Positions 21,427 to 21,740 of a stretch of 64,000 nucleotides of DNA are shown here, piece after piece. The DNA lies in the NCBI RefSeq assembly GCF_056712565.1, contig NZ_CM160072.1. One strand, written 5' to 3'. The position numbers were made by a program, and so were the translations under genes. Under the pieces are notes generated by a model that worked only from the letters and a program-made list of their open reading frames with translations, was not told where the DNA came from and did no database searches. Positions within the stretch are counted from its first letter, which is position 1. Each line of letters opens with the position of its first letter.

Positions 21427-21740
21427 AACCAAAGAGTAGTTGGCTTTGGGGTGACGTGAAGTGCAGCTGCACGACGGCAACCGGAAGATAAGCACCCGGC
21501 GCGTCACCGCCAAAGTCAATTCCATAGGCGTTATGCAGCCGCCACCATATTCAAGAAAGCTGCACAAGAGGTAGGAGGATTTATGTGAATGCATAACTTC
21601 AAAACCGAGGTTAATTAAATCTCTCGATCCGAGCATCGACCTATTAGGTGGCGAGATGCTCTTTCTGCCCCTCAGTTCGAGGGGCCAGAAACCACTTTGC
21701 AATCACTATCAATTCCAAAGTTGTTTCATCGGAGGTCAAC

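Follow-up and report, generated by a model that had tools for sequence, protein, structure and literature searches.

Why does the N gene of the lambdoid prophage contained in the 64,000-nucleotide (nt) stretch of DNA analyzed here (contig NZ_CM160072.1 of RefSeq assembly GCF_056712565.1; hereafter, the window) start so far downstream of nutL? Expression after infection or induction begins with N, and how fast the lytic cascade proceeds depends on the N level. The N start codon lies 314 nt beyond the end of boxB in the window, compared with 158 nt in lambda, 108 nt in HK620 and 111 nt in phage 21 (phi21). An initial annotation of the window, which had put the interval at about 310 nt against roughly 150 nt in lambda and had considered it a possible regulatory leader, was right about the spacing and, in outline, about the nature of the interval: it appears to form, ahead of N, a conserved and structured 5' leader on the PL transcript, and it folds better than shuffled controls (z-score -3.8; none of 100 shuffles was as good). 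Aligned with the corresponding regions of HK620, phi21, lambda, CUS-3 and HK140, the leader splits cleanly into two units, a long hairpin of the lambda type and, following it, a cassette of 206 nt. The extra length corresponds to this discrete cassette, which the initial annotation had missed. The leader contains the following features:

21440..21519, plus strand: long leader hairpin of the lambda RNase III type, with the outer stem UUGGCUUUGGGGUGACGUG / CGCGUCACC-GCCAAAGUCAA
21510..21520, plus strand: left flanking direct repeat CCAAAGTCAAT, which doubles as the 3' base of the long hairpin
21521..21726, plus strand: optional leader cassette, 206 nt, delimited by comparisons of empty and filled sites
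21534..21564, plus strand: hairpin H_A, UGCAGC (21534-21539) with GCUGCA (21559-21564), loop of 17-19 nt
21573..21588, plus strand: start-stop site, AGGAGG (21573-21578), 4-nt spacer AUUU, AUG at 21583, UGA at 21586, overlapping GUG
21589..21618, plus strand: mini open reading frame (mini-ORF) MHNFKTEVN, 9 codons, ending in the AU-rich box UUAAUUAAAU (21611-21620), which has stops in two frames
21631..21661, plus strand: hairpin H_B, outer stem GAGCA/UGCUC, inner stem UCG.CC/GGUGG, 5-nt bulge on the 3' side
21657-21664, plus strand: boxA-like TGCTCTTT, made up of the H_B 3' arm plus the pyrimidine linker
21667..21685, plus strand: hairpin H_C, GCCCCTCAGTTCGAGGGGC, GCCCCUC-AGUUC-GAGGGGC; the second nut-like hairpin of the initial annotation
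21688..21727, plus strand: hairpin H_D, GAAACCACUUUGCAAU with AUUCCAAAGUUGUUUC, 14 of 16 pairs, ending 3 nt before the N Shine-Dalgarno sequence

The first unit is, as its sequence indicates, the homologue of the long hairpin in the lambda N leader. It extends from just past nutL to ...CGCCAAAGTCAAT, is common to the short leaders, and aligns with GGCTTTGGGGTGTGTG...CACACACCACCAAAGC of lambda and with phi21; the base of its stem, GGCUUUGGGG...CC.CCAAAG, is identical to that of the lambda N leader. Folded alone, it has a z-score of -4.5 and an outer stem of about 21 base pairs (bp), which encloses two small hairpins, GUGC-AGCU-GCAC and CCGG-AAGAUAAGCAC-CCGG. The loci that we collected contain 15 distinct versions of the hairpin, 77-167 nt long and with unrelated interiors. 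All 15 keep 16-24 outer pairs, with arms that co-vary (GGTGACGTG/CGCGTCACC, GATTGGATG/CATCCAATC, GGTGTGTG/CACACACC and GATGCGGTG/CACCGCATC). The pairing of GGTGACG (21450-21456) with CGTCACC (21502-21508) around the palindrome GTGCAGCTGCAC (21461-21472), to which the initial annotation had drawn attention, lies inside this co-varying hairpin; it is real, but it is an ordinary lambdoid feature and known biology.

In lambda, RNase III cuts the N-leader hairpin. As long as the leader is uncut, the antitermination complex at nutL represses N translation; the cut detaches the N ribosome-binding site from this complex. This leader is a classic case of control by RNase III and the nutL antitermination complex. 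It shares with the leader in the window the order of the elements, a homologous transcript start (CATCAGCAGGACGC), a homologous stem base and a helix that ends just upstream of the N Shine-Dalgarno sequence, and differs in lacking the 206-nt cassette and in having the AUG closer to boxB. RNase III cleavage and autoregulation, known from lambda, are putative in the prophage of the window. The lambda nutL is located about 200 nt upstream of N, with a highly structured leader between them, and N together with Nus factors acting from nutL represses N translation (PMC5725501).

A second hypervariable slot of the leader lies inside the long hairpin. Four loci (L007:1019-1200, from E. coli SJC33, and L024, L091 and L067) carry an alternative interior of 154-167 nt between the arms GATTGGATG and CATCCAATC, and in loci of this type the N AUG lies 402 nt from boxB. 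In all versions the 3' arm ends as stem-N-CCAAAG. A version of 152 nt (L079:5966-6117) ends with a T-arm-like CTGGTTCGACTCCAG followed by TCACCACACC-A-CCA, resembling the acceptor and T domains of tRNA or tmRNA; a tRNA- or tmRNA-like reading of the hairpin, considered for these endings, was rejected, as ARAGORN calls nothing in the leaders. The palindrome GTGCAGCTGCAC consists of the H_A arm sequences TGCAGC and GCTGCA side by side, and because it combines both arms, the long hairpin and H_A could swap partners. It is missing from the other versions of the long hairpin.

Unlike the long hairpin, the cassette is a variant of N leaders that has not been described before. It behaves as a unit that is either present or absent. 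Lambda, phi21, HK620 and Cronobacter phage ENT47670 are without it, and in the first three ...CCAAAGTCAAT joins CATCGGAGGTCAACATG directly. Two pairs of empty and filled sites delimit it: HK620 (empty) with HK140 and the window (filled), and ENT47670 (...CCAAAGCCATTTCACACGAGGACAAAGCCATG) with the otherwise near-identical prophage L016, in which the cassette is inserted after CATTTCAC and CAAAGCCATTTCAC is repeated on both sides. In both pairs it is flanked by duplicated local sequence, in direct repeats of 11-15 bp; the right-end repeat reads CCAAAGTTGTTTC in the window and CCAAAGTCAAT in L008. The repeats resemble the target-site duplication of a mobile element; no terminal inverted repeats were seen at the ends of the cassette, and the 84 copies examined are all in PL leaders, not in unrelated contexts. 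Such natural isogenic pairs (HK620/HK140 and ENT47670/L016-type) lend themselves to studying the influence of an upstream ribosome site, and of the length and structure of the leader, on N control.

Among 50,697 phage records, only CUS-3 and HK140 carry the cassette, with 78% ('allele B') and 92% identity to the copy in the window, respectively. It is present in 158 of 5426 complete Escherichia coli genomes (about 3%), including the extraintestinal pathogenic strains UTI89 and S88, compared with 408-520 E. coli genomes that have the nutL-plus-hairpin type of the window. Every one of the 84 copies examined is located in a PL leader, whatever the type of nutL or N. Three types of nutL precede it (the window type, the P22 type GCGCTGACAAAGCGC, and another in L053), and at least four kinds of genes follow it (window-type N, P22 gp24-like N, H-19B-like N and, in L050, an ORF of 66 amino acids (aa) preceding N). 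Because of these different surroundings, the function of the cassette is probably not tied to N specificity. Scans of viral sequences with three sub-patterns returned the same set of loci, with no copy lacking any part, and the parts of the cassette therefore always travel together. Two pattern scans of 100,044 species-representative genomes yielded no copy, the first pattern being one that does match the window, and a scan of metagenomes yielded solely near-identical copies of the E. coli type. The distribution is narrow, consisting of E. coli phages and a few copies in a leader matching that of the Cronobacter phage, and the diversity is low.

The evidence beyond chance for the leader region comes from comparison with its relatives. 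We aligned 33 distinct versions of the cassette, refined the structure by hand and then scored it. Of the alignment cells, 93% are paired, versus 36-48% when the partners are slid by 1-3 columns. Compensatory double changes are found at six pairs, and the covariation score (0.112) lies above those of all 500 shuffles; by energy, the cassette alone has a z-score of -2.7. Roughly half of the central positions are different in alleles A and B, and compensatory changes have kept H_B, H_C and H_D. The structured strand is probably the plus strand, that of the PL transcript, because the stems contain G-U pairs, for which the complement would have A-C mismatches.

The four hairpins vary in different ways. 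The arms of H_A are invariant in all 33 variants, and its loop is hypervariable, with three unrelated versions. H_B has compensatory changes at 3 pairs and 98-100% of its cells paired: the inner stem is wholly re-written between alleles A and B with retention of pairing, and in the outer stem G-C is compensated to A-U in L053 and L079 (GAACATC...GATGTTC for GAGCATC...GATGCTC). The pyrimidine linker UUUCU separates H_B from H_C, which has 7 bp in every lineage, with differing sequences and a loop that is free to vary; in allele B it reads CCCCGUC-UAAUU-GGCGGGG, and its closing pair is either G-C or U-A. The most telling element is H_D. Its 3' arm is the duplicated, phage-specific leader-end sequence, with which the 5' arm co-varies, and in the Cronobacter-type L016 the arms GAGAUGACUCUGAAAU and AUUUCAAAGCCAUUUC likewise form 14 of 16 pairs. 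In each background, the 5' arm has changed to suit the phage-specific bases beside the N Shine-Dalgarno sequence.

The loop of H_D contains, in allele B copies (A3 columns 205-212), a run of A residues whose length differs from copy to copy (about 6-9), which looks like slippage; the variation shifts every frame that crosses the run. In the minimum-free-energy structure of the full leader, H_D is replaced by a pairing of the nutL spacer (21399-21410, AUUGAUGGGAUUG) with the H_D loop (21700-21714, CAAUCACUAUCAAU). We rejected this pairing as probably fortuitous, because copies with an A-rich H_D loop cannot form it.

The conserved single-stranded information of the cassette is, as far as the alignment indicates, a strong ribosome-binding site on AUGUGA. 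An island of 18 nt, AGGAGGATTTATGTGAAT, is invariant in all variants with the sole exception of an A>G change in the spacer of L079, and its flanks are only about half identical among the variants. The site occurs once in the window and has the features of the start-stop class: a Shine-Dalgarno sequence at working distance, a start codon with an immediate stop, and a GUG that overlaps them. Its Shine-Dalgarno sequence is predicted to be unpaired with a probability of 0.26-0.62, similar to the value for the N Shine-Dalgarno sequence. In E. coli, AUGUGA has been found to allow initiation, immediate termination by RF2 and reinitiation on the overlapping GUG (PMC9841429), and Start-Stops are bound by ribosomes and have a modest modulating effect on the gene that hosts them (bioRxiv 10.1101/520783). 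The AUGUGA site of narQ (PMC9841429) and the Start-Stops of yecJ and hslR (bioRxiv 10.1101/520783) have the same arrangement of Shine-Dalgarno sequence, AUG-UGA and overlapping GUG, a minimal ORF that encodes no product and is thought to be regulatory. Unlike these sites, which are at or within a gene, that of the cassette lies in the 5' leader of a phage transcript, with about 150 nt between it and the gene it would regulate, and its Shine-Dalgarno sequence is a perfect AGGAGG. It would be a conserved example of an AUGUGA start-stop in a phage leader.

The initial annotation had described the AGGAGG and ATG-TGA together with the 9-codon ORF behind them. The start-stop site is invariant, but the ORF did not hold up: in the common allele B its start codon ATG is replaced by ATA. 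The AU-rich box at its end is kept in all variants but L079. Could a peptide of about 9 aa nevertheless be a functional product or a sensor? In every variant, one or more ORFs of exactly 9 codons begin within AUGUGAAUG and stop in the AU-rich box, the peptides being MHNFKTEVN in allele A, MPTFNFEIN in L053, MHNFKSEEK in L079 and, from GUG, MNTYIQLRD in allele B. The alleles differ in frame as well as in sequence, however, and a stop-free stretch of 8 codons is expected by chance about two-thirds of the time. The equal length is automatic, because no insertions or deletions separate the alleles there. With the AUG missing from allele B, we consider a functional leader peptide very unlikely.

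No other coding reading fared better. A conserved ORF on either strand, including an in-frame upstream extension of N, was rejected: no frame survives in all 13 representative variants. The annotation pipeline PGAP has placed hypothetical proteins of 129-138 aa antisense to nutL and the whole leader in L005:1019-1408 (UTI89, WP_011478232.1) and L006:1019-1435 (WP_249398376.1). That the antisense strand contains a protein-coding gene, as PGAP annotates in UTI89 and SH19PTE6, would fit with the open frame in the window (120 aa, TTG start, 21340-21702 on the minus strand). This gene would overlap nutL, and its frame is broken or different in the HK140-type, L016, L053, L054, L067 and L079 sequences. 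We give the antisense gene almost no credence, and the annotation is probably spurious because the frame is not conserved among the variants. The cassette itself is unannotated in the E. coli genomes that carry it, some RefSeq records covering it with such a seemingly spurious antisense 'hypothetical protein'.

A structured, conserved insertion may still be a relic. The cassette could be a recombination scar, left near-neutral and functionless by serial illegitimate or homologous exchanges at the leader-end joint (CCAAAG...GGAGG...ATG), in which case it would carry the decayed ribosome-binding site and start codon of former N genes. The direct repeats of the local leader end that flank it are consistent with such an origin, as are its optional presence and the reshuffling of its sub-blocks between copies. 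The left end of the cassette, CCAAAGTCAATTCCATAGGCGTTATG, parallels the true leader end, CCAAAGTTGTTTCATCGGAGGTCAACATG, and in L053 nesting appears to be in progress, with a third CCAAAGTTCAACCGGAGG...ATG joint after a remnant ATGACA. We found no paper that describes the cassette; the only label is in the CUS-3 record, where the whole interval from cI to N (33288-33789) is annotated as 'bsq5; boundary sequence'. While a boundary sequence implies a recombination joint and nothing more, the cassette adds to this a discrete unit with co-varying helices. Compensatory changes have kept H_B, H_C and H_D despite the divergence of alleles A and B, the 5' arm of H_D has followed two different local sequences, the start-stop island of 18 nt is invariant, and none of the 84 copies is truncated or decayed, all of which argues against a functionless scar. 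The expected ancestry is also missing from the sequence. MAFFT set AGGAGAATCCAGATGGATGCACAA of lambda against AGGAGGATTTATGTGAATGCATAA of the cassette, but Smith-Waterman alignments of the cassette with lambda, phi21, the N start of the window and its own leader (the nutL region) were no better than shuffles, and an origin from a vestigial N start or nutL was rejected. We regard the scar as unlikely.

Two loci show how the sequence downstream of the cassette can differ. In L053 (2560-2830, minus strand of the locus), the cassette is followed by an HK620-type Shine-Dalgarno sequence with the ATGACA remnant and then by the third leader-end joint, CACCAAAGTTCAACCGGAGGTTTCTATG. This joint opens an H-19B-like N (MTRRTAFTGSSAGRRRERR...), and forms a nested recombination joint at which leader ends stack. 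In L050 (about 3130-3330, minus strand of the locus), the 66-aa ORF (MSSRISNEQKDRLCRLLSEFGVRIERSMNGFKVLGLGNNTEPRAETLDSAITLAEKECHRIYAKYL), placed after the cassette and before N, has the ribosome-binding site that N normally uses; N follows with its own GGTGCCGCCATG start.

We tentatively favor a cis-acting role for the cassette, that of a leader module by which N translation or mRNA stability is tuned, although we would not call this role probable. The cassette is positioned exactly between the long hairpin and the N ribosome-binding site, where it would act in cis on the N message. The strong Shine-Dalgarno sequence would load a ribosome on AUGUGA, which would stop at once at the UGA and at most reinitiate at the overlapping GUG or the adjacent AUG, to read a few codons into the stop box UUAAUUAAAU. 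Three stable hairpins come next, and the last of them, H_D, would rebuild the helix that abuts the N Shine-Dalgarno sequence in short leaders. The net effect would be that of an upstream decoy or protective ribosome site combined with a structured spacer. We speculate that what is altered is the dependence of N synthesis on RNase III cutting and on autorepression tethered to nutL, or else the lifetime of the processed N mRNA; RNase III cleavage in this phage and ribosome loading at the start-stop site are themselves putative.

Several observations weigh against this proposal. The cassette is optional, HK620 and phi21 being without it. With about 150 nt and three hairpins between the start-stop site and the N AUG, there is no obvious direct route to N initiation. 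The single small hairpins are unremarkable by energy alone (z-scores of -1.3 to -1.8). The low diversity amounts to about three to five lineages, and the covariation therefore rests on few independent events. Single-nucleotide polymorphisms within alleles do not clearly avoid the stems: of about 7 stem polymorphisms, assessed by eye, 3 keep, 1 gains and 3 break a pair. Finally, predictions of what the cassette does to the N ribosome-binding site disagree between the E. coli and Cronobacter types. In the unprocessed leader of the E. coli type, predicted accessibility of the N Shine-Dalgarno sequence is unchanged by the cassette (0.38 versus 0.40), and after an RNase III-like 5' trim it is 0.25 for the long form and 0.53 for the short form. 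Thermodynamic predictions give weak support for the leader module.

An alternative use of the same parts is that of a payload. The cassette might yield, in the manner of a moron, a processed small RNA or a minimal ORF that hits host translation, H_D serving as a mere insulator of N. The preserved context of the N ribosome-binding site, with the unchanged predicted accessibility, would suit an insulator, and the upstream long hairpin offers a natural 5' processing site. The strong Shine-Dalgarno sequence, minimal ORF and AU-rich sequence together resemble the layout of a minigene. The bar minigenes of lambda are two-codon ORFs with a Shine-Dalgarno sequence that are transcribed from PL. They have in common with the cassette the minimal ORF, the Shine-Dalgarno sequence, AU-rich surroundings and a place on an early leftward lambdoid transcript. 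In Pth-defective cells, toxic minigenes, lambda bar among them, have been shown to inhibit protein synthesis (PMC2490762, its reference 20). The cassette differs from bar in its position in the operon and in having one codon instead of two, with no build-up of elongator peptidyl-tRNA; because AUG-UGA yields fMet alone, the tRNA-starvation mechanism of bar is inapplicable.

Other features speak against a payload. The cassette has no copy outside N leaders, and it has no promoter, terminator or U-tail of its own and no visible 3' end of the Hfq type. On balance, a payload appears quite unlikely. No promoter or terminator was predicted inside the cassette, and it is therefore probably expressed only within the PL transcript. 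The search for a known RNA, one of the checks considered at the outset, was negative: none of the Rfam 15 covariance models matched the plus-strand leader RNA of the window at E<=10, or any of six related loci at E<=1. The small RNAs known from prophages lie elsewhere, svsR at the cI 3' end, HnrS in the late genes and PasD near the Q antiterminator gene, and the paper on Pas does not mention the N leader. On balance, a payload appears quite unlikely.

The leader-module proposal can also be taken further. The cassette would then be a self-contained, horizontally exchanged RNA module, composed of a start-stop ribosome trap, structured RNA and an insulating hairpin, that re-wires the early lysis-lysogeny decision or acts on the host. 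We find this extended version doubtful. If it were true, N synthesis would perhaps be uncoupled from RNase III and growth-rate control, or the minimal ORF or a processed RNA would act on the host, and the cassette would be the first of a new class of optional, non-coding accessory elements in the regulatory regions of phages.

It has also been suggested, in the initial annotation, that the boxA-like TGCTCTTT and the 7-bp hairpin after it are a second nut site or the vestige of one with a different N specificity. Both elements are present (21657-21664 and 21667-21685), and the stem does differ from the boxB stems of nutL and nutR. As in nut sites, a GC-rich hairpin comes after a GCTCTTT core on the transcript from PL, and a functional second nut or boxA near the N ribosome-binding site could recruit NusB/NusE, with or without N, as in the suhB leader. 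The first 7 positions of the boxA consensus GYTCTTTAANA are matched by TGCTCTTT, GTTCTTT variants stay compatible as position 2 is Y (PMC5725501), and boxA is able to repress translation from at least 100 nt upstream. However, GCTCTTTCTGC fails positions 8, 9 and 11, agreeing at 7 of the 10 specified positions and not within 1 mismatch, whereas the boxA sequences of nutL (21387) and nutR (20285) are perfect and are the only perfect matches in the window. Nor is the 8-mer TGCTCTTT distinctive alone, because it occurs 8 times in the window, with about 3 occurrences expected.

The structure of the cassette is equally at odds with a nut site. UGCUC of TGCTCTTT is sequestered by pairing in the co-varying helix H_B, and H_C begins 2 nt after the element, short of the spacer of about 4-13 nt that is the norm for nut sites. 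The loop of H_C is not conserved (AGTTC, AATTC, ATGTC, TAATT, TTAT and others), the first four of these occurring in phages with the same amino terminus of N. H_C is unique in the window and has no counterpart in the PR operon. In IMG/VR, no other phage has the H_C hairpin beside a GCTCTT boxA core, the extra hits being three intrinsic terminators. Since the boxA-like element is a helix arm, fails the consensus and is followed by a loop that varies among phages with identical N, we conclude that TGCTCTTT and H_C are very probably not a nut site, and a functional second one is highly improbable.

The remaining elements of the region are those of the lambdoid immunity region. From left to right, the order is cro (minus strand), cI, a terminator, PL, nutL and N:

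21312..21340, plus strand: PL promoter, TTGACC, 17-nt spacer, TAAATT; found by promoter scan and aligning with the annotated PL of phi21 and HK620
21387..21426, plus strand: nutL, boxA GCTCTTTAACA (21387-21397) and boxB CCCGCCGAAATGCGGG (21411-21426); aligns with the annotated nutL of HK620
21731..22040, plus strand: N ribosome-binding site and N gene, GGAGG (21731-21735) and coding sequence (21741-22040, 99 aa)

nutR is on the minus strand downstream of cro (boxA 20285-20295, boxB 20254-20269) and has the boxB CCCGCCGAAATGCGGG and the boxA core in common with nutL. N is 68% identical to N of phi21 (E 2e-46), with a different arginine-rich amino terminus, and its match to the Pfam family N_peptide is weak, under the curated cutoff. 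The cI gene (20569-21219) encodes S24 peptidase and helix-turn-helix domains, and is followed by a strong intrinsic terminator (21218-21245). In the lambdoid prophage NC-SV, the small RNA svsR maps to the cI 3' end (PMC12803456). Directly after N, the window has an ORF of 156 aa (22049-22519) without a Pfam domain; the position after N is occupied by ral in phi21 and CUS-3 and by hkaQ in HK620.

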